From contig PS015054.1 of the NCBI GenBank assembly GCA_048213135.1, positions 487,727-527,247 of the forward strand: DNA of 39,521 nt, in the 5' to 3' direction. Origin of the DNA: Reclinomonas americana ATCC 50394 (lineage: Eukaryota). Within the stretch, counting starts at the first letter, position 1; the number at the start of each line of letters is the position of its first letter. The position numbers and the translations under genes were made by a program. Below are positions 1-34,935 of the stretch, one piece after another. The notes below the pieces were generated by a model. The model saw only the letters and a list, made by a program, of their open reading frames with translations, had not been told where the DNA came from and did not search any database.

Positions 1-3000
1 TACCTTGGCCGACAGGCCCCTCATGAACTCGCTGAGGTACTTGTTCAGCTGGGGCGCGGTGGGGAGTGAGCGACAAAGAAGAAGCTTTGAGAGGCAAAAC
101 AAGGCGGTGAAAACCAAATCACCTTGGTCGGATTCAACATCGGGAAGAGTTGCTCCGTCCTGTCACAACACACACAAAAATCAGCACACACACACTCGCT
201 TCGAGACCAAGTGGGGATTTGATGCAAACGCAACGGTCCGACACCCTCTGTCAGCTTCACCAGGTTGTCGTAGACTTGCGGATCCACCTGCACCTCGTTC
301 TCGTACTTGATCGAGTCCTTGCCGAGGAACGAGAAGAACACTTTCCGATCATCGCGCAGATCCACGTGCTCGATGCGAAGCGAGCAGCAGCCGACAGTGT
401 CGGCCTCCTCCTCCGTGTCCTTTTCGCCACCCACACGCTGTGCGGCAACGACACACAAGTGAGCAAGGAGGCTAACAAGGGAAAAAAACTTCCTTGCTCC
501 CTACACACGCACCAGTGCCAAGGTGTCGATAAAGTACAACGCCGTAGCCCTCTGCATGGTGAACGGATCGTCCGATCGGAGATCCTTGCGGTTCTTCTTG
601 CGGATGCGGTCGATGATGAGCGAGAGGCGGCGGGCCTTGTCGAACTTCTCCATGTCGGCCCACAACTTGAACGAGCTCTGCGCCGACAGGAAGACGTACT
701 TGGTGCCGTTGAAGAGCGGATCGCGCCAGGTGGCTGTCCAGGTGACGGCCTTGTTGTGCACAATGCCGCCCCACTTGTGACCGGCTGGCGGCTCCGGAAT
801 CTTGGCCTTCTTGCCAATGTTGATGGTGATGTCTTCGGGGAACACGCGACGCTTGAAGCAGCCCTTCTTGGGGTGCTCGCCACGGCCACGGAAGAGGCCC
901 GGCGGCTCGATGCGGTAGTTGCCGTTCTTCTCCTTGCGGCCGTCCACGTACACCCACTTGTACTTTTCCTCGGCGGCCTCCTTGGCCGCCTTCAGCGCCT
1001 TCTTCTCCTCCTTGGACATGCTGTCGCGCTTCTCTTTTTCTCGCACGTGCCAGTTCCAGATCGGGTCAAAGTTGACCCAGTCGAGCCGCTTGATCGTCTT
1101 GCCCTCCTCCGTCTTCTTGAGCAGCGGCTTCCAGTCGTTCCAAAAGTTCTCGCGGAACTTGGCGTCGTTGTAGTGCGGCAGCAGTCGGAGCACCGCAAAG
1201 TACGTGCCCCACTCCTCCTGCTCGGGCGACAGGTGCACGTCAACCTGCTCGCTCGGCTTCTTCGGATCGCCGTACTTGAGCGGAATACCGTGTGGCTGGT
1301 ACTCTGGCGGGAACAGCACGCCATTGTGTTCGAGCGTCTCCCACTTCTGACCGGCCTTCTTCGGCTTCTTCTCCCAGTACTTCTCCGTGATCACCGGCGT
1401 CACGCCCTCCTCCTTCTTCGCCGCCGCGCCCTTCTTCTTGCCGGTGCCGCCTTCGTCGTCACCGTCGTCGTCATTCCTCTTGGCGCCCCTCTTGCCACTC
1501 TTTTTGCCATTCGCCGCCGCTGCGCCAGTGGCGTCGGTGGCGGCCGTCGGCGACCCACTCTTCCTCGGCATGATCGGCTGATCTTCGTCATCCTCTGACG
1601 AAGACGAAGCCTTCGACCTGCCATTGGCCTTGCCCTTCTTGCCGGCGGGCGCCGCGCGCTTGCCGACCTTGCCGGCCTTGCGCGAAATCGGCTCATCCTC
1701 CGAATCATTGTTGTTGTCGTCGTCGTCGTCGTCATCGCTGCTCTCCGCCTTCACGCCCCTCTTGCCCCTCTTTGCCTTCTTCTTCTCCTGCTTCAGCTGG
1801 CTCAGCGGCACATCCGAATCCGACTCCGCCTCCTCCTCGTAGTCCTCATCGTCCGCCGAATCCGACGACTCCACCATACGCGCCGGCTTCTTCACCACCG
1901 GCTTCGTCTTCTTCTTCGCGATCGGCTCATCGTCGGAGTCGTCCTCGTCGCTCGACTCCATCACCGCCTGCTTCTCGCGCTTCACCTGCGCCACCGTCTT
2001 CTTCCCCGCCGCCGGCTTCGGCTTCGGCTTCGGCGCAATCGGCGCATCATCGCTGTCCTCATCATCGTCGACCTTCATCTTCTTGACAGCAGCAGCAGGT
2101 GGCTTCTTCATCAGCGCCGCCAGAGGCACGTCATCGTCACTGTCTGACGATGACGACGACGACGACGAGGCATCATCGTCGACCACTGCGCGCACCGCTG
2201 ACACTGGCGACTTGACTCCATTAGGCGTGGACGGCTTGGCGCGCTTCATCAGCGGCGCATCCTCATCACTGCTGCTGTTGTTACGCTCCTGCGCGCCACA
2301 CACGTTGTGTAAGCACTGCACGCTCAACTGGTCAAGAGACAACTCACGCGCACACANNNNNNNNNNNNNNNNNNNNNNNNNNNNNNNNNNNNNNNNNNNN
2401 NNNNNNNNNNNNNNNNNNNNNNNNNNNNNNNNNNNNNNNNNNNNNNNNNNNNNNNNNNNNNNNNNNNNNNNNNNNNNNNNNNNNNNNNNNNNNNNNNNNN
2501 NNNNNNNNNNNNNNNNNNNNNNNNNNNNNNNNNNNNNNNNNNNNNNNNNNNNNNNNNNNNNNNNNNNNNNNNNNNNNNNNNNNNNNNNNNNNNNNNNNNN
2601 NNNNNNNNNNNNNNNNNNNNNNNNNNNNNNNNNNNNNNNNNNNNNNNNNNNNNNNNNNNNNNNNNNNNNNNNNNNNNNNNNNNNNNNNNNNNNNNNNNNN
2701 NNNNNNNNNNNNNNNNNNNNNNNNNNNNNNNNNNNNNNNNNNNNNNNNNNNNNNNNNNNNNNNNNNNNNNNNNNNNNNNNNNNNNNNNNNNNNNNNNNNN
2801 NNNNNNNNNNNNNNNNNNNNNNNNNNNNNNNNNNNNNNNNNNNNNNNNNNNNNNNNNNNNNNNNNNNNNNNNNNNNNNNNNNNNNNNNNNNNNNNNNNNN
2901 NNNNNNNNNNNNNNNNNNNNNNNNNNNNNNNNNNNNNNNNNNNNNNNNNNNNNNNNNNNNNNNNNNNNNNNNNNNNNNNNNNNNNNNNNNNNNNNNNNNN

Positions 3001-3439
3001 NNNNNNNNNNNNNNNNNNNNNNNNNNNNNNNNNNNNNNNNNNNNNNNNNNNNNNNNNNNNNNNNNNNNNGAGGAAAAATCTGGAAATGTCGCACACACTC
3101 TTCCTGTCTTACACGCACAGCGGCGTGCTTCTCCTCTCTGTCTATGTGGGTGTACGTGTGGGTCACACACTTGCACATCGTGCATGTGAGTGGGCATTTG
3201 TGAGCGTGAGTCTGGACTCGTGTTTATCCGCAATACAACACACACTCTTCTCTCTCTCACACACACACACTTCTGCTCACTCACCGCGTACACTTTCTCA
3301 CACACAGAGACACACACAATACACTGACCCACAAAAGTGCAAAAATACTCACAAATCACGGCACATTCTCTTCCTCTCTTCCTCTCTCTCTTCCTTCCGC
3401 ACACACATGTGCTCACTTACCTCCAATCACCGCCGGCAT
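1..3439 (-). CDS. TOP1: DNA topoisomerase IB, spliced; continues off the left edge; first exon tentative
   Basis: Motifs [78 protein letters not shown] follow a long Lys/Asp/Ser-rich N-terminus. The main exon is about 513-2288, with GT-AG introns at 438-512, 160-234 and about 50-122. A putative first exon (MPAVIG, donor gtaagt at 3420) lies beyond the N gap and needs further exon(s) in the gap to stay in frame. Confidence 0.97.
2357..3069. other. Assembly gap (N run)
   Basis: Run of N inside the 5' part of TOP1. Confidence 1.
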
Positions 3440-3836: not shown

Positions 3837-6800
3837 ATGTCCTCGCGCCCGTCTCTGCGTCGTACCTTCTCCGACATGCAAGAGCTGGACGCGTTCACCG
3901 CCGACTTGTTCCAGCAGAGCAGCGTCGTTGCCGCACCAAGCAAGCAGCCGTCACTGATGATGATGAGCTCGCGATTCTCGCCGATTGGTGGCGGACGCTC
4001 GGCGCCTGGATCGCCGACGTCGAGCTTTATGCGTCACCCACAACAGCAGCAGCAGCAGCAGCAGCATCAGTGGTCGACATTGCTCGGCAGCAGTCGTCCG
4101 GGATCGGCGGCTTCGTCGCCCTGTATGCCGCACTTTGGATTGATTTCGCGCTCCTCCAGTCCGGTATTGAAGCACGACGAGGAGCACAGTGCGATGATGG
4201 ATCAGTTGCTGTTGCATCACCATCACCACCCGATGCTGCTGCAGCAGCAACCACAGCAGCAGCAGCAGCATCAGACGTTGTTGCCGCCACCTCCGGCGGC
4301 ACCACCGGCCAAGGCCGAGACGGCGGACAGCATGGTGTGCACGATCAGCGGGCCGTCGACCAGCGTGCACTCGCCGCATCACCACCAGCATCAGTATCAG
4401 CACTATCAGATGCCGCAGCAGCAGCAGCAGCAGTTCCAGCAGCCGCAGCGACCGTCGGCACCGCCGAGCCCGCAGCACATGCCGTTTATGATGCCGGCGA
4501 CGCCCGTGGCGCAGGTCACGACGACGATTATGAGTGGCCAGGCACCGTCGCGGCCAGTGGCCTCGCGTGCGCTGAGCAAGTCGCCGCCGACGCCGCTGCG
4601 TTTGCCCGGACGTGATGGCATGACTGCGCCGTCGTCGCAGTCGGCGTCAGCGGCCGTGTCGCCGGTGCCGTCGTCACCACCGGTGCCTTCCATGTCTTCG
4701 TCGACAGCGACGACGACGACCACCGTCGCCACTGCGCCGGCACCCACCATGTTGCCGCCGCCGTTCCAGCATGCGCACATGCAGGCCGAGTATGGTGCCG
4801 AGCAGCAGCAACCCTACGCGACCATGTACGGCTACCCGGCGTACTTTTCACAAATGATGCCGCCGCCACCGCCGCCACCACCGTTCATGCCGAGCTCGCA
4901 AGCGGTGTGTAATGCAGTGCCCACTGCGCTTTTTAAATCCTGTGTGCTTGACTACTCACTTTTTCCCTTGCGTCTCTACAGAACTCACCGCCGCCGCCAC
5001 CGCCGCCGCCGCCGCCAATGACCATNNNNNNNNNNNNNNNNNNNNNNNNNNNNNNNNNNNNNNNNNNNNNNNNNNNNNNNNNNNNNNNNNNNNNNNNNNN
5101 NNNNNNNNNNNNNNNNNNNNNNNNNNNNNNNNNNNNNNNNNNNNNNNNNNNNNNNNNNNNNNNNNNNNNNNNNNNNNNNNNNNNNNNNNNNNNNNNNNNN
5201 NNNNNNNNNNNNNNNNNNNNNNNNNNNNNNNNNNNNNNNNNNNNNNNNNNNNNNNNNNNNNNNNNNNNNNNNNNNNNNNNNNNNNNNNNNNNNNNNNNNN
5301 NNNNNNNNNNNNNNNNNNNNNNNNNNNNNNNNNNNNNNNNNNNNNNNNNNNNNNNNNNNNNNNNNNNNNNNNNNNNNNNNNNNNNNNNNNNNNNNNNNNN
5401 NNNNNNNNNNNNNNNNNNNNNNNNNNNNNNNNNNNNNNNNNNNNNNNNNNNNNNNNNNNNNNNNNNNNNNNNNNNNNNNNNNNNNNNNNNNNNNNNNNNN
5501 NNNNNNNNNNNNNNNNNNNNNNNNNNNNNNNNNNNNNNNNNNNNNNNNNNNNNNNNNNNNNNNNNNNNNNNNNNNNNNNNNNNNNNNNNNNNNNNNNNNN
5601 NNNNNNNNNNNNNNNNNNNNNNNNNNNNNNNNNNNNNNNNNNNNNNNNNNNNNNNNNNNNNNNNNNNNNNNNNNNNNNNNNNNNNNNNNNNNNNNNNNNN
5701 NNNNNNNNNNNNNNNNNNNNNNNNNNNNNNNNNNNNNNNNNNNNNNNNNNNNNNNNNNNNNNNNNNNNNNNNNNNNNNNNNNNNNNNNNNNNNNNNNNNN
5801 NNNNNNNNNNNNNNNNNNNNNNNNNNNNNNNGTCGGGCATGCCAACGGCCGCGTACTATGGCATTCCGCCGCCACCGCAGTTCCACTATGCGCCGCTGTC
5901 GGGCGACAACGGCATGCCTGTCGCGACGCAGCAGCAGCAGCAGCAGCCGACCAAGGGCAAGCGTCGCCCGCCACCGTCGCACAGTGGTGCACAGGTGCCC
6001 TTGGCCACTGTGCCGCAGGTCGCCGACAGCCTGCCGCCGGTTGCGCCCTCTGGCGGTGCTCCGTGCCACGTGTCGTACAAGACGAAGCGCATGGGCGGCT
6101 GGGCGGCCATGCCGCGCGAGCTGTCCGCCGCTCACACCCACTGCATCAAGCTGACGTGTGCGCTGTCGGAGGCGGGCACACCGGTGCCGAGCCAGATCAA
6201 GTTCCGCATGCACATTCTCAACTGCGTCGAGGAGGTGGACGAGGTCGTCAACGTGCTCGACTCCACCAACCCCCTCCGCGGCTACACCGAGTCGCTGGTG
6301 GTGACGGCCGACGATTCGGAGATTATGGATGTGGAGCTCAACGACGACGTGGTGTCGGTCATCACCAAGTTCAAGCTGAAGAAGGTGCCGCGCAGCCGGT
6401 GCCCGCAGCTCCGCTTTGCCTTCATCTTGACGGACCAGAGCACCAACTTCTTTGTGTGCATGCTGACGGCGTCGTTCAAGTTCTTCCAACGCACCACTGG
6501 CGGCACCGNNNNNNNNNNNNNNNNNNNNNNNNNNNNNNNNNNNNNNNNNNNNNNNNNNNNNNNNNNNNNNNNNNNNNNNNNNNNNNNNNNNNNNNNNNNN
6601 NNNNNNNNNNNNNNNNNNNNNNNNNNNNNNNNNNNNNNNNNNNNNNNNNNNNNNNNNNNNNNNNNNNNNNNNNNNNNNNNNNNNNNNNNNNNNNNNNNNN
6701 NNNNNNNNNNNNNNNNNNNNNNNNNNNNNNNNNNNNNNNNNNNNNNNNNNNNNNNNNNNNNNNNNNNNNNNNNNNNNNNNNNNNNNNNNNNNNNNNNNNN

Positions 6801-7030
6801 NNNNNNNNNNNNNNNNNNNNNNNAAAAGGTGTACGAGCGCACTGGTGCGCATGCTCGTGGCGACAATGGCGAGCCGCCGCGGAAGCGCCAACGCTCCACG
6901 TCGCGCTCCAACTCGGCAGCCTCCTCCCCGACACAGGAGTACGAGGAGGCCTACGAGACGCAATCAGCAGCGCCGCCGCCACCACCACCGCCACCACCGC
7001 AGCAGCTGCAGCAGCAGCACCATCATCACA

Positions 7031-10400: not shown

Positions 10401-12871
10401 GCAGTTGATTGAGGTTCTTGACGAGCTTGCATCCGGCGTTCTTGATGCGATGGCCCTCGTCGATGATAATGTGGCGCCACATTACTTTGCGGAACGCCGG
10501 CAAATCCGTGTCACGCAACAGGAATTCGTACTGCAATGGTGGTGGTGGTGGTGGTGGTGGTGGTGGTGGTGGTGGTGGTGGTGATGGTAAGGAAGAGTGG
10601 AAGCAATGCAGGGAGCTTATCTTGTACAAACATGCGCACCTGCGTGATCATAATGTTGAACTTGCACTCGGACATTTCCACGGCCGCGATGCGTCGGCGT
10701 TCGTCCTTGTTGCCCTTGTACATGACAAAGGTGAGCTCGGGCGCCCACAGACTCAACTCCGACCGCCACGTGTCGAGCATACTGCGTGAGAAGTGAGAAA
10801 AGAGCAGAGCAGAGCAGAGAGAGAGAGAGAGAGAGTGGTGGCCTCGAGACGCAACGCGCACGGCACGACAATCAAGTGCGGGCCCTTGATGCCCTTCATC
10901 TCGTTCAGGTACGCCAACAGCGCAATGGTCTGGATGGTCTTGCCGAGACCCATTTCGTCGGCCAAGATGCCATTGAGATTGTTGTTGTACAGCGACACCA
11001 TCCATTGCAGACCGCGGAGCTGAAGGCCGACAGATATTAGACAAGAATGGAAAGGGCGAGGAAATAGAAAGACAGCGAGATATGAAGAACGAACGAACGC
11101 ACCTGGTACTCCTTGAGCTGTCCGCCCACCAGCATCTTCGGCTGCACGGCAATCTCCTCGGCCTCCTGATGCGTCTTCATGTAGAACTCCTTGGTACCTA
11201 CAAGCGCCTTTGTCAATACGACGCACATCAACAAACAAAAAACGATGAGAACGGAGACGCACCGACACCCTCTGGCGGCACATGCTCCTCCTCTCCGTGC
11301 TCTCCACCCTCGCCACCGTCGCCAGCCATGCGGGCATCGTCACTGGCACCAGCAGCGGCTCGTGCCGCGTCACGCTTCTTCACAATCATGGCGGAGATAC
11401 GAGCCATACAAGTCTCGGTCTTCTCAATGAGTTGCACCAGGCGCGTCTTTTGGGCGTTCTTCATCAGTGCCTTGTATTGCTCCATGTCGGTTTCCTGAAG
11501 GAGAGGTCACGCGGGTCAGATGGGTGGGAGAGACGAGGGGAGATAATGCATTTGCACTCAACTCGCAACAAGCGGAGACGCTCGCGTTCCTGTCGCTGCT
11601 GCTCCTCCAGGCGTCGACGCTGCAGCTCCACCATCAGATTCTGCATGGCGCCGGCCAGACGACGGGCACTGCTCGTGCGGTCCGTCCATCTGCGTGCACC
11701 AGTCGTTAAAAGTGAGAAACCATACACCGATTCAAAAATGCCCACGCCTCGCCGATCACGTACTTGCGCATGAGATTCTCACGATGGCGTGCCACCGAAT
11801 CGAGAAACACGTGCCGCTTGCTCTGCACGGCTCGCATCTGCTGCTCGCGAACACGCTGTGACGGGCGACAGAAGTGAGTCCACACAAACACACACACACG
11901 AGCAGACGCCTTTCACGGTCCACACCAGTTCACGCTCGTGCTTCTGCTTGACCAACTGCACCGCCTTGTCCTTCTCGTCCAACATGTGCTGCAAAAGGAG
12001 AGAAAATGCGCGCTCAGACACCCTTCTTCACACATGCAACATGGTGGTGATTATTCGCACCTGCAGATGCAAGCGATGGCTCAAGCACGTCGGATCGAGC
12101 TTGGCGGCGTGAGCCGCCAGCAACTCGCAGCGCGTGAGGTACTGCACGAGTCGCATCTCCACCGTGCGCTTCTCGGACAGAAGCGTCTCGCGCAGCGACG
12201 GGCACTCGATAGTGGGGATCATGGCTGTGAAGCAGGTGAGGCGGGGTACAAAAACGAAGCACGTGAAATGAAACACAAGCGTGTCGACCTGACAGTTCTG
12301 CAACTCGTCGCTGGTGCGAGTGAACAATTTGCTGATGTCGCTCCTCGGTCAGGTTGTGTGCGGCACGCAGCGATACATACGAGGTAGCCATGTTTTCCGT
12401 GTCGCGGAAGGCCGTGGCTTCCAAGCCAGACGGGTCGTTCTGGGTGGAGCGCAAGGGACAGATGAGGTCGGAAAACCGCAAGTGATGCACCCCGCCACAC
12501 GCACCGCACGGATGCCCTGCAACATGCCCGTCTGCGCCAGCTTCCACTCACGAATCTGGTCAGCCACCGCCGCACGCTGCGTGTCGGTGAGCGGATGGCG
12601 GTTCGCTGGACCCCAGACGGTGAGAAGATGCACCAAGCAACGAAGAGGGGGGCGGGAGACGTACCACTGCTCTGCAACGCCTGCGCGTGCAGCTCAGCCT
12701 CACGTCGCTCGAGCAAGTCCAGCAACGCGCACAGCGTCTTGCACTGGCGCATGGCGGTGTGCACGCCGGCTTGAGCGAGCGCCGCCACCATCTGCGAAGG
12801 GAACGGGAAAGCGATCAGGAGAACGAGGGAAGGACTTGTCGTTTCTTCCAGGGACGCTCTCTCTCTCTCTC

Positions 12872-12923
<52 letters not shown>

Positions 12924-13095
12924 ACGCACACAGTGAATGCACTTTGATCACACACACACACTCCCTCTCCTCTCTTCCTCTCTCTCTCTCTCACACACAC
13001 ACCTTTTGCGTTTTGACTCGCACTGCACTGAGCTGCGAGAGGCTCAGCTCCGCAAACTCAGGTGGCAACTCAGCAACCACCCCAATTGAAGTCAT
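7420..13095 (-). CDS. SNF2: SWI/SNF chromatin-remodelling ATPase (Snf2/BRG1 subfamily), about 18 short introns
   Basis: Motifs [120 protein letters not shown]. Also an HSA-like helix, a SnAC-like region ([18 protein letters not shown]) and two RGRPR AT-hooks. Start MTSIG at 13095 is inferred by splicing to the 12791 exon. Confidence 0.95.
10537..10588. repeat. (TGG)n microsatellite in an SNF2 intron
   Basis: Direct trinucleotide run. Confidence 0.95.
12858..13002. repeat. Compound (CT)n/(CA)n microsatellite in SNF2 intron 1
   Basis: Direct dinucleotide runs. Confidence 0.9.
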
Positions 13096-13402: not shown

Positions 13403-14626
13403 TTACAATATCGTGCAGCAGCACTGCGAGTCATCTTGCTGCACGTAGTACACCTGCTGCTGCTGCCTGCCTGCCTGCGGTCCGTATGCATACGCGTAGC
13501 CGCCGCCACCGCCACCACCGGCCAGCAGCGGCACGTTGAGGTTGCCGCCTCCAGCCGGCATCCACTGCCGCGTGTCGCCCGCGGTGTAGTAGTACGCTGC
13601 TGCCGCCTGCTGCTGCTGCTGCTGCTGCTGGCCCATCATCATCATTCCGCCGCCACCGTATCCGCCGCCGCCGCCGCCACCACCACCAATGACCCCGCGA
13701 GTCAGCTGCCGCACGCCGGCGAACCGAAAGTCGGTGACCTGCTGCTGGTCGAGCGAGAAGAACCAGCGGTTGAAGGTGGCCAGGAGGATCTTGATGGTGT
13801 GGTCGGAGAAGGAGTACGAGAAGAAGCGGTCGCGCTGGATCATCTTGACGCGGTTGGCCTCCTCGCGGTAGTCGTCGGTGTTGTCGAAATTCAAAATCTG
13901 CCCATCCCACGCATCCAGGTACGCCATGTCCTCCTCGTCGTCGGTGCACTCGGCAAACGACACGTGAATCGTCGGGTCGCCATTCGTCAGCGAGTACAGC
14001 GTGCCAAAGAGCGCCTCCCGTCCCTCACTCGGCTCCCCGTCCGTAATCACCACAATCAGCAGCATGGTGCCGGGCTCCCTTCTCGGCGCCGACGCCGCCA
14101 CGCCCTTCACCGCTCGCGAAATGTGCGTATTCCCACTCGGCGGCCGCGCAAAGGCCGCCGCCAGACGCACATCCTGCACTGAGGTGACTTGCGGCACGGG
14201 TGCGCGATTCAAAAACGACACATTGACCGGGAAACCCGAGGTCGCCGTCGCCACCTCGATGATTTTCGCCACCAGCTTTTGCAGCTCGAGCCACCTCGTG
14301 GAGGTTTTCGGCACAAACGCGCCCACTCCGTCCTCCGCAATCACGTTCATCATGGAGGTGGAGTCGTCGCAAATGATCTCAATGTGCACGCGTGTGAGAA
14401 TGCGCAGTGCGTCGGCGACAAAGGGCGGCAGTTCCCAGCGTTCCACCAGTGAGTCATAGGCGCTCTGCTGGGCCGGCGGTTGTGGTTGAGGTGGAGGCGG
14501 AGGCGGGGGAGGCGGCTGTGGTTGCATCATAGCAGGTGCGGGCATTGCGGAGGGTGCGGCCGCGACGGAGGTGGGTGGTGGCGCCAGAAGAGGAGCGGAG
14601 GGTGCGTAGGGTGAGTAGGGGTCCAT
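13403..14626 (-). CDS. Intronless von Willebrand factor A domain protein with Pro-rich N-terminus, Gly/Tyr/Gln tail and C-terminal CaaX box
   Basis: MIDAS-like IICDDSTSM, FLNR, GNT and VVITDGEP; ends QCCCTIL-stop. Start MDPYSPY at 14626. Confidence 0.88.
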   Translation of the reverse strand: MDPYSPYAPSAPLLAPPPTSVAAAPSAMPAPAMMQPQPPPPPPPPPQPQPPAQQSAYDSLVERWELPPFVADALRILTRVHIEIICDDSTSMMNVIAEDGVGAFVPKTSTRWLELQKLVAKIIEVATATSGFPVNVSFLNRAPVPQVTSVQDVRLAAAFARPPSGNTHISRAVKGVAASAPRREPGTMLLIVVITDGEPSEGREALFGTLYSLTNGDPTIHVSFAECTDDEEDMAYLDAWDGQILNFDNTDDYREEANRVKMIQRDRFFSYSFSDHTIKILLATFNRWFFSLDQQQVTDFRFAGVRQLTRGVIGGGGGGGGGYGGGGMMMMGQQQQQQQQAAAAYYYTAGDTRQWMPAGGGNLNVPLLAGGGGGGGYAYAYGPQAGRQQQQVYYVQQDDSQCCCTIL

Positions 14627-14806
14627 GGATGGCGGGGAGGAGGGACGGAATGGAAAGGAAATGTGTGGGACAGCATGCATATACATATCCGATTGTTGAC
14701 TTCGCCATCCTGTCGTGCGCCCTCTTGCAGTGCATGCACACATCTCAGTGATTTGCTGAAATCACTTCGCGACGTGTCTTTTCTCCGCCTGTCACTTCAC
14801 TTATCC

Positions 14807-17800
14807 TCACACCATTCCCAGATCCTCGAAATCCTCATCGTCGTCGCCGTCCTCGTCGACCTCACGCAGCGGCAATCCACTCGGTCGCACCAACGACAAT
14901 CGTCCACTGCTGCGCCCGCTACTCTGCGCACGCGCGCTGGGTGCGGCCGACGATCGCCCACCGTAGCTTCCGCTACTCGTTCGACTGTGCGTCACCGATG
15001 CCTGGCGACCGCTCCCACTCGCACTACCACTGCCACCACTGCCACTGCGTCCCGACAACTTGCAGGTGGCGTTGGTGGCGGCGTTGTTCTCCTGCTCCAT
15101 CTCGCCAAGACCAATATTAACGGCGGCGACGGCAGCCTCAAGACTCAACAGCTCGGCCGACGGCGAGCGGCGCAACACGGGCCCGGCACTTGCCGACCGA
15201 TGGAAGCGCGGGCGAGGTGGCACGCGGTCCGCAAAGCGAGCATGCAGCCGGTACTGCTCCAGCTGGAACTGCAGCTCCTGGTAGTCGGCGCGCATCTTCT
15301 CCTGGTACGGCACTCCGTTGTAGGAGAGGACGCAGCCGAGGTCAATGAACATGGCCTTGGCGCACTCGGTGCAGCTCTGTGTCGACGTGCGCAGTACCAA
15401 GAGCAGCTTGTGTCGCTTGGTCTCCTCCTCCAAGCGCGCATTGCCCTTGCCGCCCTTGCGGAGCCGCCTGCATGTCACAGTTCAGTGCGCGAGCGGAGAG
15501 ACACGGATGTAGCAGATGACACATACCGTGGATCCATGATCATCAACTCGAAACTCTCGAGCATGCGCAGCGCCTTTTCTCTTGCCAGCACCATCTCTGT
15601 GGCCTCGCTCCAGTAGATGAAAGCGCGCTCAATCGCCACCATATCTTGTCGTCCACGCACTGCTTCGCGATGCGCCGCGCGCTCCTTGTCCGGCATCAAC
15701 AACATTTCCCACATGTCCTCCAGGCGCTGGCAGTACTGATCAAAGGCCTGTCGATCAAACGGTCGCTCACGCATCTGTGCGATGCGGAGCAGTCGTCGCG
15801 AGACCACACTGCTGGCCGTGGATCCCGACGTTGCCGCTGCTGCTTTGACGACCTTGGAAGTGGCGGCCGCCAGCAACATGCGACCCGCTGCGCCACGGTA
15901 TTGAGAAATGAGACAACAAAGGGCGCGAGGACAGACACAAAAGAGTGAACGCACGATCCGCGGCATTGGCTATGACGCTGTGCTTGTCGTCGAGTGCACG
16001 AGCAGCGCTTCCGGCCTTCTGCACAAGAGCATCCACTTTGGAGGGATCACGAGCCGAAGACTCCGCGGACGGCGGCTTCACCGCCGCACGCCGCATACGG
16101 TCGATTCGCGCATCCAGCTCCTCCAGCGACAGGTATTCCACTGTCGAAAAATTGGCAAGTGAGAAGAAGTGAAAGCCGCCTGCACAGCGAAGAAAAAGGC
16201 GCAACATCGCGGTGTGGCAAACACCGATGTGGAGGTGCTCTCCGAGCCGAAATCATCACCCAGACCCTGCTTCAACAGGCGCATGCGCACGGCTTCCAGC
16301 AGTGCGCGCCGACCGTAGTACTTGCTGTTGTAGGCAACACCCTCGTCTATTATCAAATGAGTAGGAATTAGCAGCCGAGACACACAGTCACGGACAGGAA
16401 AGCAAAGCGACGACGCACTGTCACCCTCGGCGTACACCCATTCGCCGTACAGCAAGTGGCACATGAACTGCTGTGCACGTGAGAGGTTGCCGCGGTTGGG
16501 CATCGCGTCGCCGCGCGCATTCATGGATCGATACATGCGCAGTGAATCTGCCGACACGTGAATGAGGAAAACGCACCGTGGAGGCGTCCGAAATCGCTGC
16601 CACTCACCAGGTTCGTCGTTCTGAGTCTGCATGTAGTGCCCAACCAACACCATGCCCTGCACAAAAGAGTCGCTCAGCATGAAGGAAGCACATGCAGAGA
16701 TGCAATGGTCGCTCTGCTCACCTGTCGGTGCATGGTGATGACCTTGGTGAGCGCTCGCTGTACCGACGCACAGGTCATTTGGTACCGCGCGCGTGTATCC
16801 TCATCCAGGAACGCAATGTAGCACTGAATGACTGCATACAAGTCGTCCAACTCCGACAGCTCATCCTGCGGCATCTCGATCGTCAGTCACACAACCACCG
16901 CTCATCGCCCTTCTCCTCCAACTCACCATCACCAAATCGCTCTCCAACTGTACGCGCAGTCGTTCCACCACCGCATTGTATTCGCACAGAGCACGCAAAT
17001 GGACGGGCAGCGCCGAGTTGAACAGGTTGCGCATACGCAAATCCATCATCAGCAGCAACTCGGCACCCTTGGCCCATGTCCTGCATAACACAACAGCCTC
17101 GGTGAGACGGAAGCTGACTCTCTCTCTCTCTCTCTCTCCCTCCCTCTTCACGCACACACCTCTTGAGTGTGGTTGTGCGGGCACGGCGAAAATCAACATT
17201 GGCCAGGGTGTGCAGCAAGGCGTGCCGATATGTGCGATCTTCCGGATTGGAGAGGGGCTGTGGCCGAGACACAGAGGCGCTGAGTTTCGGAAAGGGGCAA
17301 CTACGTACAGCAGCGACGGTGACGCACACTGCCTGGTCGGAGCTGCCTGTCGTGTGTCGCTTGGTCGTCGCGATTCTCCCAGTCGTCGTCGTCGGACGGC
17401 AGAGTCTGCCGGCTGTTCCACGAGGACATGCCAATCGACACTTCAGAGATATTGCGCGCGTGCCCTGCGAGTCGCACACACCATGAGAATTCGTATGATC
17501 CCCAGCCACAAACACGAAACGCAAGACGCACCTGAACCGCGCATCGGGCCCGACGTCTGAGACATGAAGCTGACATCTGTGACGAAGATGTGAGCCGACA
17601 GCACGGCAAACAGTAAGCAGCGCACACTCAAGACGAACCGCCTGGTACGAGAGACGAACTCCGCGAGTGGAAACCACCTGTTCACATATGATGAGTGCCG
17701 TCCAGCGAGCTGTGTCTTTCTCTCTCGGGCCACTCACCACTGGCGCCGAGAACGGAGGGAGATCGTGCATGAATGTTGGAGAGATCTGGCGGCACGAGCG

Positions 17801-20404
17801 ACGGACTCCTCGAGTGGCCACCTGTGTGTCGCGCACGAGGGTGGGTCTCACAGACACAAGCCAGTGAGTGGTCGCGTAACTCACCTGCCAGCGACTGTAC
17901 ACGCGAGTGCCCTGAAGATGCTGCTGCTGGTGGTCCTGCAGCAGCAGTGTGAGTCAACTGCACTCAGCTGTCGATTCTGGTGCGCCAACACACACCATCG
18001 GCAGGGACAAACGACGATGACCGCGAATGACCTGCATTCAGAAAATGTGTGAGCCAGTGTGAAACCGCGGTCGTGATCTTGCTTCGCCTAACGTACCAGT
18101 TGGCACACTCGACTGCGTGCGGGAATGCATGCCTGCAAGTACAAGGCTGCGTCAATAACCACGCCTGGTGACACATGAGACAACTAGAAAACAACAGACC
18201 TGAGACGGGCGACCCACCTGCAACACCGACGCAGAGGTTCTGTGAGATTCAACAGCTATACGATGGGGGGGAAGCACGCACGACGTCTCACGCACCAGTG
18301 GCCGCAGTGGACGAGGGAGCACGGGGTGTCTCATCCTCGGGTGGTCGCAGCAGAGTTTGTGCGAGGTACACCACAAGCTGCTCCAACGATCGCTCCTGGA
18401 TGTCGGGTGGGTCGTCGGGAGTGATGACGGCTGATACGCACTCGTCAGGCACACAGGAATATGCACACCCTTGACCAGGTTCACACAGGCACACGCAACG
18501 AAAACCAACTTCCGGATCCAACAGTGGCAGAGAACTTTGACGCGGCAGTGGAACACTGGGGCGGTCGCCTTGCAGTGGTGGCGGCGAGGCCAGTGGTCCC
18601 AGAATCGCTTGGTGCATGGACGACGTGACGGTATTTGCTGGATGCAAATGCGACGTATCCAGGTGTGACTCGGTCGCCGCTTGCTCGACCAGCGACGGCG
18701 AGCGAATGAAATCCGTGGAAAACACGGCCACCGGCTTCCCCGTGCGTGGTGCATACTTGGCCTGGCCAATCATGGAGGCTGGAAGTCCGGAAGCGGCTTC
18801 CGCCTGCTGGATTCGATCGATGTCGCTACATGGCACGGCGGAGGTGAGAGTTGAGACCACGAGGGAATGACACGCGCTCATCGTATGCGAAGAACTCACC
18901 GAGTCGCCTCAGCCATGACACTCTTTTCGAGGGCGGTCGACAGGCGTCCTACGGGCTGCGGTGGCGGTGGTACCGACTGTGACCTGTTGGTTGCAGTGCC
19001 GTTGACAGAGATTGCAGAGTGTAGTTTTTGTCGCACGCGAGAGACTGCGCCGCTGTTGTCTGCGGGCGTCCAGCTGGCGGCGGTGGTCGTCGTCGTGGCG
19101 GTCGTGGCAGTGGTGGTGTTCGACCTTGACAGGTCGAACGACACTGTGTGGTGCTGCTGCTGTTGCACCTCAGCAGGCACGCGACGGGGTGGAATCATGG
19201 CGGCAACCACTTTGCGCATCACACCATTGTACGCGGCACCGTCTGGCGAATCGGTCACCAGCGACAGCGGCGGCGACGGCGGCGATCCCACGCTGCTGTT
19301 GCTCCCCATGCCTCCCAGCGGCGGCGACGACGGCGGAGAGGTGGCCAGGAGCGGTGGCGAGCTCGGTGGCGACGAGTATGCCGGAGTCGACGCGCCTGTC
19401 GAATCCCCTGCACCAGATGCCGCTGCCGCTGCCGCAGCTGCCGCCGCCGCCGCCTGTCGCTGTGCATTTGTCGGCGACTTGCGCGTACCGATAATGTACT
19501 GGTGCAGCTGTGTGCCGAGAACCGATGTCGGCGACGTGACTCCTGGCCCGGCTGCCACGGCCGTCGAGGCGGCATGCTTGATCTGTCGCGCCTTCTCCAG
19601 CGCCTCCGGACTCTCCTTCGAACCGATCGCAGTGATCATATCGCTGATGGACTCGCTGAGGCGGCGCGTAAACGTCGAGCGCTGACGACGGCGACCTTTC
19701 TTGGTGGCGCTGCCACCCGCAGCTGCCGATGACGACGTGGGCGTGCTGGGTCGGTGCGACAGACTGCGCGTGGGCGACGGCGAGGAACCGGTGGGCGAGT
19801 CGGGCGAGTGGCGGTTCGAGTTCTCGAGCTGCGCGCGCTGCAACGCGGCGGCACCCTTCTCGCGGTACTCCATCGTCATGTCGCGCTCCACGTCGCGGCT
19901 GGTGAGACTGCGGGGAGAGCGGAGGAGAGTGAATATCGAAGACCGTTTCGTTCTGATTGTCGTGCGTTGCGCGCGCGCAACTAGGAGTACATGGCAGTGT
20001 CGGCCTTTGCTCTCGCGCGAATGCGGTTGGCCGCGGGCGAGATCATGCCACGCGAATTCCATCCTGATCATCATAAAGACAAGTGTCACATCGGCCTCTC
20101 AGAGCAATGCACGGAGAATGTGAGGGCGAGGGAGCGAGAGGCGCGCAACTGGAGCACAGCTTCTCGCTGAGTCGCACGAGCTCCTCGCGCTTGCCCTCGA
20201 TTTCCATCTCCACGCACTCTTGCACGATCCGTTTGTCGACCGCTGACAGCGGCTGGAGAATGGCAAACCGCTCATGCGTGAGTGAGTGAGAGAGGCGCGC
20301 GCGCACGCACACGCACACGAGTGCGTGTGAGAGAGTGGCAACGCAACGACATTGAGAGGCACTTTGAGAGGCCCATTGCGTTTCACGGGTTGCGCCTTCT
20401 CCAT
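14807..20404 (-). CDS. CCDC87: CCDC87-like coiled-coil protein, about 20 introns
   Basis: C-terminal domain QRLEDMWEMLLMPD...WSEATEMVLAREKALRMLESFE...DPRR...LEEETKR...GCVLSYNGVPYQEKMRADYQELQFQLEQYR matches my recollection of the CCDC87 C-terminus (QRLERIWSVLEVPD...RE.LL..LE.FE...GRPYLDKMKRD..EML..L.Q). Exons splice in frame from MEKAQP at 20404. Confidence 0.75.
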
Positions 20405-31458: not shown

Positions 31459-34400
31459 ATGTCGATGCGACGCACACTAGTCGCACCAACCACTGAGCGC
31501 GGTAAGTCGCACACACACGCACGCACACAACACACAACGCGCACAGTAAAAAAGCTTGAATTTGAACTCACACAAGTATGTATTTCCCCGCGCCCTCTCT
31601 CATGCACTCTCCATCTCTCACACTACTCTCTTATGCTCACTCGTACACGCACACACACCACTCTCATTCTCTTGCTCTCACATGCACTCATCTCTGCATC
31701 ACATGCAGCGGAGCTCTCACTCTTTGCACACTCTCTTTGTACGCAAGCTCTTTGCACACACACACACACACACGCATTGCACACTCAATGCCGGGCTCTT
31801 GCATTCTCAATTCCTTACTCACGTCTCTCTCACTCTCTCTTCCCTCTCTTCTCTCTGTTACAGGCCGCTCGCGCACTCCATCACCCAACCGCAGTCGCAG
31901 CAACTCTCTTGCCTCACCCGAGACACTCCCACTGGGAGGCGCTCTGCGCTCTTCTGCTGCAGCACCCTCAGCCGCCGGTGCTGCCGCCGCTGCTGGCTCC
32001 CCGGCCGGCTCAAGTGGCAGTGCAACACTGAAGCAGTCGAGTCCAGTGGGCGCTGTGCTGGCCTCCTCGCAGCATGTGCGACGTGGCTCGGCGCCTACGA
32101 CGATTGGGTCGCCGTCGTCGCCTGTGGTGAGTGCCATTGCTCTGCTTGTGCTGCTTGGAACTTGCGCTCGTCTTGCTGTCAGGCGCGCGCTCCTCCCTTT
32201 ACTCATACGCGTGCTGGGTTCATCTTTCAATCTTGTCTGTACATTTCGCGGAACATGTTCTTCTTGCTTGTCTGGCGCGCTTTCCGCTCTCTCACACTTC
32301 CTGCGCCACCCCTCCTTCTCATCCTCCTGCTCTTGCGCGCTCATACGCGTGTGTGCCTTGCTTCCAATCTTGTTTGTGCATTTCGCGGAACACGTACAAC
32401 TTGCTTGTCTGTCGCTCTTCCTCTCTTCTCTTCCTCCGCGCGCCTCCTCTCCATGCGTATCCACATGCTCGTTGTTCAAGTCGTGCTCTCAATACCGTTT
32501 GTGCATTTCGCGGAACATTCTTGAGTGGCACCTCATTCACTCATTTTGTCGTCATTTGTTTGAGCACTCCCCACCACACACACCCTCCTCTCTCTCTCTC
32601 CCCACTCGCTTTCATCTTCCGATGCTCGCTTGCTCGCTGGGGCGCCTCTCGCTTTCTCGGGATTCGATAAACATACTTGTGCGTGGTTTCGGGGATTCTT
32701 TGATTCTCGCTCCGTCTCACTTTCTTCCGCTCGCTTTCATTGCTCACCGCCTCCTCTCCCACACACAGTCCGCCGGCGGCAGCAGCAGCTCGTTTGCCGG
32801 TCCGCGTGACGAAAAGGACTTGGTGTTCCCCGAAACACCCATGTCGACGGCAATGGAGATTCTCGGCGATCGGCAGCAATGGGCGGTGGCCGACACGCAA
32901 GCCATGGTCCAGGTGCTGACCGAGGCCGAAATTCGCACAGTGGCCGACTTGAAGAAGGCCAAGCCCATGCTGGGCATCTTTGGGTTGCAAAAGCCGGTGG
33001 TCGACGCCATTGGAGAGTACTTGGACACGTGCATGCGTGGTTTGTTTTGTTCTTTCACACACACACACACACAAAGTGGAGAGCGTCCTCATTTCTTCTT
33101 CTTGTTGTTCTTGGTCCAGATGCCCCGCCAATGAGTGCGGCGGAGGTCATTGCGCAAGTGCTGGAGCGTGGCTACGGCACGCAGTCGGAGGCGGGCGGTT
33201 TTGTGGAGCTGGATCCGGCACACATTGTGAAGAAGCGGCCAGTGGGCTCGGGCACATTTGGTGATGTGTACGAGGGTCGAATCGGTGAGATTCCGGCGCG
33301 AGTGGCCGTGAAGGAGATCAAGCAGGTCGGCACCGATCACACAGTGTTGCTGCGGGAATTGCGAGCCATGTCAAAAGGTGAGCGTAGACGGGAAGGGAGG
33401 AGGGGCACTGAGATGGAGGGTGCGCTCACGCCTCTGGTCAGTGTGTTCTCAAGAAAGAGACGCTTGTGTGGTGCGGGCTCTCTTTCTTATATGTCGCGTC
33501 TTGAATCTCGTGCGTGCCCTCTTTCTTGTGCGACACGTGCGGAGCGCGTCGTGTCTTGTGAGCGCTCGACTCCTCTCTTTCTTTCTTGTGTGAATGGTGT
33601 GTCTTTGAGTCTCGTGTATGCGCTCATCGCTGCCATGCCCTCTTTATTGTGACCGAAAGTCTTGTGCCTCGTGCGTGCTCTCGTCGCTGTTCTTCCCTCT
33701 TCCTTGTGCGACCTGCAAGGAGTGCGTCGTGTGTTGTGTCTCGTGTGTGCACTCGTGCCCTGTTCGTGTGGCCTGCGTTGAGTTCTCAAGTCTTGCGTCT
33801 CGTGTGTTCACTCTATTCCTTTTTCTTGCGTGACATGTGTCGTGTCTTGCACCTTGTGTGTGCGCTCACTCCTCTTCTGTCTTTTTTGTGCCACCTCACG
33901 TGTGTTAATTCATTCTCTAATCTGCCTTTATCGTGGTATCCTGTCAACATCTGGGTGTGTTTGCAGCTGACATTGTTATTACCCTCTCCCTCCTTTCCCG
34001 CAGTGCCCATCGAGGGAGTCGTGGGCCTAATTGGCGCATGTACGAACACGGGCGGCGATGCCACCAGCCCCTACTACATTATTACTGAATTCATGGAGTT
34101 GCGTTTCGACGACAAAAGTCCACCGCAACCTTTCCCCACTCCCGCATCTCACCCTTTTTTTGTCCCCCCTCCCTCTCCTCCTTCCGCTTACAGTGGCGGA
34201 TCACTGGGCGACTGGGTACACAAGGGCAAGGGCTTGCAAGCGTCGCCCTTTCAAAAACTCGTCATTTGCTGCTCGATTGCCCACAATATGGGCGATTTGC
34301 ACGCGAATGGCATCTGCCACCGAGACTTGAAGACGGAGAACATTTTGATGGACGCCTCGTATGCTCACCCGAAGGTGGCCGATTTTGGCATCTCGCGCGT

Positions 34401-34935
34401 GAATCGTGACTCGGACCGCGTGGAGACCATGCACACCACCACCGGCACCCTCGCCTACATGGCTCCCGAGGTGAGCTCCATGCGCGTTGTCTGTTTCAGT
34501 GCGTGTATGTGCTAACACACGTGTGCGCGCGACAGGTGTTGAAGGGCGAACCATATGACGAAAAATGCGACTGCTACTCGTTTGGCGTGATGATGAACGA
34601 GGTGCGTGACATGAGGTCGACGGTCTGCTTGTGCTTTTGTTTCTCACTCGTCGTGCCTGCAGATCATGTCGAATCAAGTGCCATTCTCAGACGTGAAGAA
34701 CCAGTACGCAATCATGCATCGTGTGGCCGGCCTCAATCAGCGACCAGTGCTGTGCACGCCCGACAAGTGCCCACCGCCAGTACTGGAGCTGATTCAGCGC
34801 TGCTGGGACGGCAACTCGCGCAAGAACAAGCGACCATCGTTTGCGCAAATTGCGGCTGCGCTTGACGAGTTGGTCGGCCTCGGCGAGGCCACTATCAATG
34901 GCGCCTGTGCCGGACGAGGTTCATCCTCCCGCTAG
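31459..34935 (+). CDS. Tyrosine-kinase-like (TKL) Ser/Thr protein kinase with a low-complexity N-terminus and a possible SAM-like domain
   Basis: Motifs VGSGTFGDVYEG, VAVKEI, RELRAM, YIITEFMDGGSL, CHRDLKTENIL, KVADFGISR, TGTLAYMAPE, EKCDCYSFGV, LIQRCWD...RPSF; 8 exons. Confidence 0.93.
32200..32520. repeat. Diverged minisatellite (period about 125-137 nt) in kinase intron 2
   Basis: catttcgcggaaca at 32242, 32379 and 32504; ctcatacgcgtg twice. Confidence 0.85.
33470..33880. repeat. Diverged minisatellite in kinase intron 4
   Basis: Recurrent gtcttg...ctcgtg(c/t)gtgc.ctc and cttgtgcgac units at irregular spacing of roughly 50-110 nt. Confidence 0.75.

Follow-up and report, generated by a model that had tools for sequence, protein, structure and literature searches.

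A run of seven consecutive mini-exons, most of which encode a predicted kinase site, lies in a gene on the minus strand of a 39,521-nucleotide (nt) stretch of Reclinomonas americana ATCC 50394 DNA (assembly GCA_048213135.1, contig PS015054.1, positions 487,727 to 527,247), which we call the window and number from its first letter. The seven mini-exons, from 18217-18200 to 17576-17532, measure 18, 36, 36, 51, 84, 39, and 45 nt, all multiples of three, and the peptide motif HxRxxS recurs through this array and in the exon that closes it. The word exon stands here for a predicted exon, derived from the sequence alone. We regard the array exons as very probably real, and they would encode a linker that accepts phosphate at several sites; the whole chain of claims, which runs from constitutive mini-exons through a multisite acceptor linker for an NDR-family kinase to an old duplication, has in our estimate about an even chance of being correct. 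The parts of the gene on which the argument rests are the following.

14807-19879, minus strand: host gene model, 19 exons, 3819 nt of coding sequence, 1272 amino acids (aa), the only stop codon being the terminal one.
18296-18825, minus strand: exon 2, which precedes the mini-exon array and is left in phase 1.
18200-18217, minus strand: mini-exon 1, 18 nt, GGSPVS, no motif; the least certain exon, with a weak donor (GTCTGT, 4.9 bits).
18097-18132, minus strand: mini-exon 2, 36 nt, GMHSRTQSSVPT, motif at 18127-18110.
17996-18031, minus strand: mini-exon 3, 36 nt, GHSRSSSFVPAD, motif at 18029-18012.
17885-17935, minus strand: mini-exon 4, 51 nt, GPPAAASSGHSRVQSLA, motif at 17909-17892.
17822-17884, minus strand: intron in the gap between mini-exons 4 and 5, 63 nt.
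17738-17821, minus strand: mini-exon 5, 84 nt, two motifs, HSRSPS at 17816-17799 and HARSPS at 17771-17754.
17639-17677, minus strand: mini-exon 6, 39 nt, GGFHSRSSSLVPG, motif at 17669-17652; weak donor (GTTCGT, 1.7 bits).
17532-17576, minus strand: mini-exon 7, 45 nt, DVSFMSQTSGPMRGS, no motif.
17328-17464, minus strand: exon 10, 137 nt, entered in phase 1 and left in phase 0, which closes the array; GHARNIS at its start, with the motif at 17462-17445.
14972-14989, minus strand: eighth motif, HSRTSS, in the C-terminal tail encoded by the last exon.

AG stands directly before and GT directly after every one of the seven mini-exons, all seven are in phase 1 at both ends, and the codons split at the junctions encode either Gly (G|GN) or Asp (G|AT) throughout. 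The naive probability of seven symmetric exons in a row is (1/3)^7. The six introns between the mini-exons are 60-67 nt long, those that border the array measure 78 and 67 nt, and the array makes up 309 of the 3819 coding nt. An earlier note on this DNA had laid out these seven exons with their coordinates, lengths, and peptides, their phase 1 symmetry with short GT-AG introns, and two further motifs, one in GHARNIS at the start of the next exon and one in HSRTSS in the last exon; all of these were recovered in our analysis, with measured introns of 60-78 nt. Its remark that none of this appears among the listed open reading frames (ORFs) is not strictly true of a stop-to-stop listing, in which two ORFs on the minus strand, 17682-17963 and 17964-18248, contain four of the motifs. 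The intron at 17822-17884 is the only one of the eight array introns that is in frame and free of stops, and its retention would add 21 residues; retention of any of the other seven gives a frameshift or an in-frame stop.

Possible exon chains were scored with a splice model consisting of donor and acceptor weight matrices and a branch-box bonus, trained on the 10 non-array introns of the gene, and every GT-AG chain that keeps the frame from 18400 to 17400 and has introns of 50-130 nt was enumerated, about 9.7e9 chains in all. The top-scoring chain reached 125.8 versus 125.3 for the chain of the earlier note, and the two have seven of eight introns in common. Their sole difference is at the last junction, where the top chain has an exon at 17576-17482 and begins the next exon from 17405, with a gain of 0.5 bit and loss of the GHARNIS motif. 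In 100 dinucleotide shuffles of 18295-17465, the best chains scored 81.2 +/- 8.8 (maximum 106.1) and contained at most one H.R..S, which puts the real array about 5 standard deviations above the shuffles. Although an additive score of this kind favours many introns, the shuffled sequences averaged 9.24 introns against the 8 of the real array. The array introns resemble the other introns of the gene in length, donor type, and CTNAY box: besides the two weak donors listed above, their donors are GTGAGT, GTGCGT, or GTACGT, and six of the eight array introns, like seven of the 10 others, have a CTNAY box whose distance to the 3' end is 14-25 nt. Codon usage gives the array exons +0.074 bit per codon in their frame, against -0.18 to -0.41 for the introns in any frame.

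The peptide encoded by the array departs strongly from chance. The 1272-aa model contains eight H.R..S motifs, at residues 512, 523, 543, 553, 568, 582, 608, and 1213, which is the number that had been claimed before. Shuffles of the whole protein contained 0.34 such motifs on average and never more than 4, and none of 20000 reached 8; the 150-residue array segment has 7, where shuffles averaged 0.15 and peaked at 3. When the window is read in all six frames, its 79042 residues contain 53 H.R..S, 7 of them within one 800-nt stretch of the minus strand; the runner-up among the non-overlapping 800-nt bins of that strand holds 3, and a second HxRxx[ST] cluster was not found elsewhere in the window. 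His, Arg, and Ser are identical in all eight motifs, and positions -2 and -1 vary freely. The codons behind the constant residues differ: CAC (five times) and CAT (three times) for His, five different codons (CGC, CGG, CGA, CGT, and AGG) for Arg, and TCG (four times), TCT (twice), TCC, and AGC for the acceptor Ser. Invariance of the three residues despite synonymous codons points to purifying selection on the peptide, unlike a repeat maintained at the DNA level, and the codon table of the eight motifs is the strongest internal argument for the translated frame.

The available text of two papers gives HxRxxS/T as the consensus of the NDR/LATS/Cbk1 kinases, with His at -5, Arg (or Lys/His) at -3, and Ser/Thr as the acceptor (PMC4320110, PMC3849777); the former calls the requirement for the -5 His unique among AGC or basophilic kinases, and in the latter some HxRxxS sites drive 14-3-3 binding. 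The earlier note had assigned the motif to the same kinases, in agreement with both papers, and had added that such phosphosites often bind 14-3-3, which the portion of PMC3849777 at hand bears out for some of them. In the R. americana protein, all eight motifs have the H, R, and S of this consensus. Seven units in the linker follow the pattern G-(G)-x-H-[SA]-R-x-x-S-[hydrophobic]-[hydrophobic]-P, and the eighth, H-S-R-x-x-S, stands in the C-terminal tail. Since the invariant His at -5, Arg at -3, and Ser at 0 are the specificity determinants of NDR/LATS/Cbk1, the repeat is most likely a multisite phospho-acceptor cluster for an NDR-family kinase, and we put the chance that the kinase of the array sites is of the NDR/LATS class at even or slightly better.

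We propose the following mechanism. The mini-exons of the block would be real and for the most part probably constitutive, and they would belong to a protein-coding gene restricted to its lineage, which we infer to be transcribed with the exons included. Together with the start of exon 10, the array would encode a low-complexity linker of about 105 residues, rich in Ser, Gly, and Pro and probably disordered, which would join a Ser/Pro-rich N-terminal half to an alpha-helical C-terminal half. Once phosphorylated, the cluster in this linker could act as a graded or thresholded switch on the helical domain, possibly via 14-3-3 binding.

Several observations weigh against this interpretation. The training introns of the splice model were placed by eye with the same GT-AG and open-frame logic, so the splice test is partly circular. 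A close CTNAY box is missing from two array introns, the donors after mini-exons 1 and 6 are weak, and the acceptor at 17822 is a further weak splice signal. The coding score of the array is weakly positive, with 7.7 bits in frame 0 versus 2.6 bits in frame 1. Dropping the whole block as one 831-nt intron also preserves the frame, and continuity of the ORF is thus no proof of inclusion. With regard to 14-3-3 proteins, their mode-1 motif is R-S-x-pS-x-P, with Pro at +2, whereas Pro occurs at +3 in four of the eight units and at +2 in none; the sole exact match to R[ST].[ST].P in the model is RSQSVP at residue 299, outside the array. Pro is not strictly needed for 14-3-3 binding. The Cbk1 docking motif [YF]xFP, as given in the available text of PMC4428629, has no match in the 1272-aa model. 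Finally, the host gene has no detectable relative in the searches listed further below.

Among the other explanations, the one that survives best accepts the exons and gives the repeat a role outside NDR/LATS signaling, either as a general basophilic-kinase cluster of the RxxS type (PKA, AKT, CaMK, or AMPK-like) or as a non-phospho binding repeat with His and Arg as ligands; we hold it to be unlikely. The protein is rich in RxxS overall, as R..S occurs 22 times against 14.0 expected, a number reached by 83 of 5000 shuffles, and RS.S occurs 10 times against 1.71 expected, a number reached by none of 5000. His-less look-alikes are found outside the array in exons 1, 2, and the last exon (NRSQSVPP at 297, FIRSPSLVE at 366, PRQSSLP at 420, FHRSASAGP at 1141, and LRRSPSAEL at 1151), so that the RSxS unit extends beyond the array and, with the RS.S excess, keeps a broader basophilic-kinase reading open. 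Within the array, however, the -5 His is invariant in all eight units. AMPK- and SnRK-type sites need a hydrophobic residue at +4, and this position is not hydrophobic in the array. The available text of PMC4320110 names no other basophilic kinase that prefers His at -5, but it also indicates that this His is not found in all NDR/LATS substrates and that one consensus site in Kif23 is His-independent in vivo.

An artefact of the gene model is less probable still, and we would assign it only a small chance. Here, some or all of the mini-exons would be unused, the block would be intronic, untranslated, or part of a decaying gene, and the motif repeats would be relics. By virtue of the symmetry, removal of the whole block keeps the frame, but the resulting 831-nt intron would be seven times as long as the longest other intron of the gene (119 nt). 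The weak coding score of the array and the near-equal alternatives for the 18-nt exon and the last junction stand against a splice score far above that of the shuffles. The lack of a homologue of the host gene in the searches made would also suit such an artefact, but the full model runs over 1272 codons with no internal stop, and the retention of His, Arg, and Ser in every unit despite differing codons is not what would be expected of DNA-level relics.

The earlier note had also pointed out that any subset of the mini-exons could be skipped without a frameshift, so that splicing could set the number of phosphosites. The frame argument is sound: whichever of the 128 subsets of exons is taken, frame and stop codon are unchanged, 2-8 motifs are left, and the junction codons, being G|GN or G|AT, are never stops. 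That the mini-exons are in fact cassette exons, skipped under regulation in various combinations so that a protein has between 2 and 8 HxRxxS sites depending on condition or cell state, nevertheless seems very improbable to us. According to the available text of PMC6142364, short exons and weak donors correlate with exon skipping across eukaryotes, which would fit the very short exons and the two donors of 1.7 and 4.9 bits, but skipping goes with longer flanking introns, and intron retention is regarded as the dominant mode outside animals. The introns that flank the mini-exons are only 60-78 nt, and tunable skipping is disfavoured by their shortness. A precedent for an NDR/LATS consensus site on an isoform-specific exon is exon 18 of Kif23 (PMC4320110, in the part available), but the symmetry itself needs no selective explanation, because duplication of one symmetric unit produces it automatically. 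The most elaborate form of this idea, a splicing-programmable phospho-rheostat in which 128 isoforms tune the control of a divergent MAP65/CCDC87-like cytoskeletal protein by an NDR/LATS-type kinase, and perhaps by 14-3-3, in a unicellular short-intron eukaryote, would have the slimmest chance of all.

Returning to the constitutive array, the arrangement of one unit per exon most likely goes back to an exon and its intron having been duplicated in tandem long ago, although the 84-nt exon lacks one such intron; mini-exon 5 looks like two units without an intervening intron. An origin by exon duplication, which the earlier note had put forward, is plausible and fits part of the evidence. Introns in shared positions are all in phase 1, the split Gly codon lies 1-3 residues before His in five of the seven array-region motifs, and the peptide pattern recurs. 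Residual similarity between units at the DNA level, by contrast, is limited to a single 24-nt coding match of 87.5% between units 5 and 6, the array introns are alike only in their splice and branch signals, and Tandem Repeats Finder detected no array in the block. This near-complete loss of nucleotide similarity is no proof of a duplication but agrees with an old one; the duplication, if there was one, would be old. Alternatively, introns may have been gained in parallel at a recurring AG|G site within a pre-existing repeat.

The host protein had been described as CCDC87-like, a label that our searches do not support. Word-indexed searches with the 119-aa exon and with region 1-100 of the final exon, each against longer proteins, gave no homologue. 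An exhaustive HMMER search of 1.84 billion representatives returned two matches, both spurious repeat proteins that local blastp and phmmer did not match to the full model. Two metagenome scans for relatives of the host gene found none, and a PDB sequence search with two exons yielded nothing better than E = 0.37. In Pfam, 11 single-exon translations, each of which is only a domain fragment, matched neither PF03999 nor any other family even at E <= 10, and four antisense or read-through ORFs gave nothing above the cut-off. AlphaFold2 applied to the 119-aa exon alone predicted all helices with a predicted local distance difference test (pLDDT) score of 51.4, which is too poor for a fold search.

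A language-model feature search, in which scores below 0.9 count as leads only, placed clusters partly annotated as MAP65_ASE1 at ranks 1-3 for the 119-residue exon (0.85, 0.84, and 0.83, with the family in 15%, 48%, and 30% of members), and a CCDC87 cluster at rank 13 (0.78), all of them below the threshold; for the final exon, BAR-like rows at 0.81-0.83 were at chance level. As every score is below 0.9, the CCDC87 resemblance is a weak lead and not a finding, and the sub-threshold lead, itself weak, would favour MAP65/Ase1 over CCDC87. A literature search on a link between CCDC87 and MAP65 found no paper with both. MAP65/Ase1/PRC1 (PF03999) and CCDC87 are similar to the host protein in overall layout, a helical domain followed by a Ser/Arg-rich tail, but differ from it in that no single exon has a Pfam match and a PDB sequence match is lacking.

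The remainder of the host gene model includes two further features.

15955-16547, minus strand: three consecutive phase 1-1 symmetric exons, free of the motif, within the helical C-terminal half; lengths 123, 87, and 186 nt.
15467-14807, minus strand: last exon, which encodes the Ser/Gly/Arg-rich C-terminal tail.

All 18 introns of the model are GT-AG introns of 59-119 nt, and 13 of the 18 are in phase 1. The 5' end was provisionally set at the ATG at 19879; the N-terminus of the model, within this provisional limit, is polar by eye with no hydrophobic signal visible. The longest intron, at 16141-16259 on the minus strand (119 nt), has an alternative acceptor at 16180 that would shorten it to 80 nt and add 13 residues, and the choice of acceptor rested solely on the position of the branch box. 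In exon 2, the minus-strand stretch 18431-18509 is Cys-rich and resembles an intron in its CTGAC box and its acceptor, TATCAG. The obvious GT donor would give an intron of 79 nt (18509-18431), which was rejected, as it breaks the frame and makes the reading implausible; the in-frame alternatives inside exon 2 are 75, 69, or 54 nt long and have weak donors. Exon 2 may therefore hold an additional in-frame intron ending at 18431, with 18505-18431 and 18499-18431 as candidates. The intron at 17159-17081 contains a (CT)15 tract at 17118-17147, which is (GA)n on the gene strand.

The window as a whole has about 58% G+C and short introns and is eukaryotic in style. Three runs of N (2357-3069, 5026-5831, and 6509-6823; 1834 bases in total) are assembly gaps and account for apparent low-GC bins in the composition profile. 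Long (CA/TG)n tracts around 12850-13000 appear as THTHTH and VCVCVC in ORF translations. Next to the host gene, a single-exon ORF at 13403-14761 on the minus strand encodes a VWFA-type protein of 452 aa; its best relatives are metagenomic proteins and proteins of Klosneuvirinae giant-virus metagenome-assembled genomes (Hyperionvirus and Barrevirus), with about 45-52% identity over roughly half the length, and Pfam at E 0.01 gave no family. The search for its relatives returned no self-match, which indicates that the proteins of this genome are absent from the database searched. Pfam assigned no family to 9 of 10 long ORFs of the window, and scans of the window for tRNAs and Rfam families were negative. 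The DNA seems to come from a eukaryotic lineage that has been little sampled. An ORF at 33562-34515 on the plus strand codes for part of a protein-kinase domain (Pkinase, 1.1e-17), and the window has no other kinase fragment; the PDB sequences closest to this one are generic Ser/Thr kinases (Pto, CIPK, Chk1, AMPK, and RSK), not NDR/LATS.

If transcripts confirm the array, it would offer a clear example from nature of kinase-consensus sites and symmetric mini-exons that correspond one to one, and it would illustrate how the duplication of exons for a disordered linker can enlarge a multisite phospho-switch. The host protein would also become a candidate substrate of NDR/LATS-type kinases, from a lineage whose proteins lack relatives in the databases. 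The array does not open any long-standing question.

Clusters of such sites in disordered regions are known from other proteins, among them YAP, TAZ, and yeast Ssd1. Ssd1 has about eight Cbk1 sites. The available text of PMC3849777 gives five HxRxxS sites in YAP and four in TAZ, with at least two of the YAP sites starting H-S-R in a review table, and that of PMC4428629 describes multiple Cbk1 consensus sites in Ssd1. The likeness to the array lies in the presence of several H-x-R-x-x-S sites, which in YAP, TAZ, and Ssd1 act as a multisite switch, some of them via 14-3-3. No sequence homology between these proteins and the array protein was found. Only in the array do the sites, here predicted ones, form a recognisable tandem peptide repeat with units in mini-exons, and the array has Pro at +3 instead of +2 and no [YF]xFP.

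Splicing changes the number of consensus sites in Kif23/CHO1, where, in the part of PMC4320110 at hand, the consensus site S716 lies in a 104-residue insertion from the isoform-specific exon 18 and 14-3-3 binding is involved. Kif23 is an animal gene of exon-definition architecture, and its cassette exon is single and large, whereas the present gene has seven mini-exons and introns of 60-78 nt. Runs of symmetric exons of 3-81 bp with frame-preserving skipping are described for the micro-exon genes (MEGs) of schistosomes, in which micro-exons make up most of the coding sequence, introns reach up to 5 kb, and the products are secreted proteins (PMC10526429, 10.1101/2023.06.21.545858, available text). 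Symmetric micro-exons are common to both systems, with seven of seven here at 18-84 nt, but the share of the coding sequence (309 of 3819 nt) and the introns (60-78 nt) of the present gene set it apart from MEGs.

Tandemly duplicated symmetric exons with one short repeat each also occur in tau (the microtubule-binding repeats and exon 10), in titin PEVK, and in the fibrillar collagens. In tau, each repeat has a kinase site, and skipping one exon alters the repeat number. All of these genes are from animals, their introns are long, and their alternative splicing is documented; the element repeated in the R. americana gene would be a kinase consensus instead of a structural or binding repeat. 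Both HxRxxS clusters and repeat-per-exon genes are thus already known; what appears to be new is their combination, symmetric mini-exons with one predicted consensus site apiece, in a gene that is an orphan and belongs to a eukaryote with short introns.

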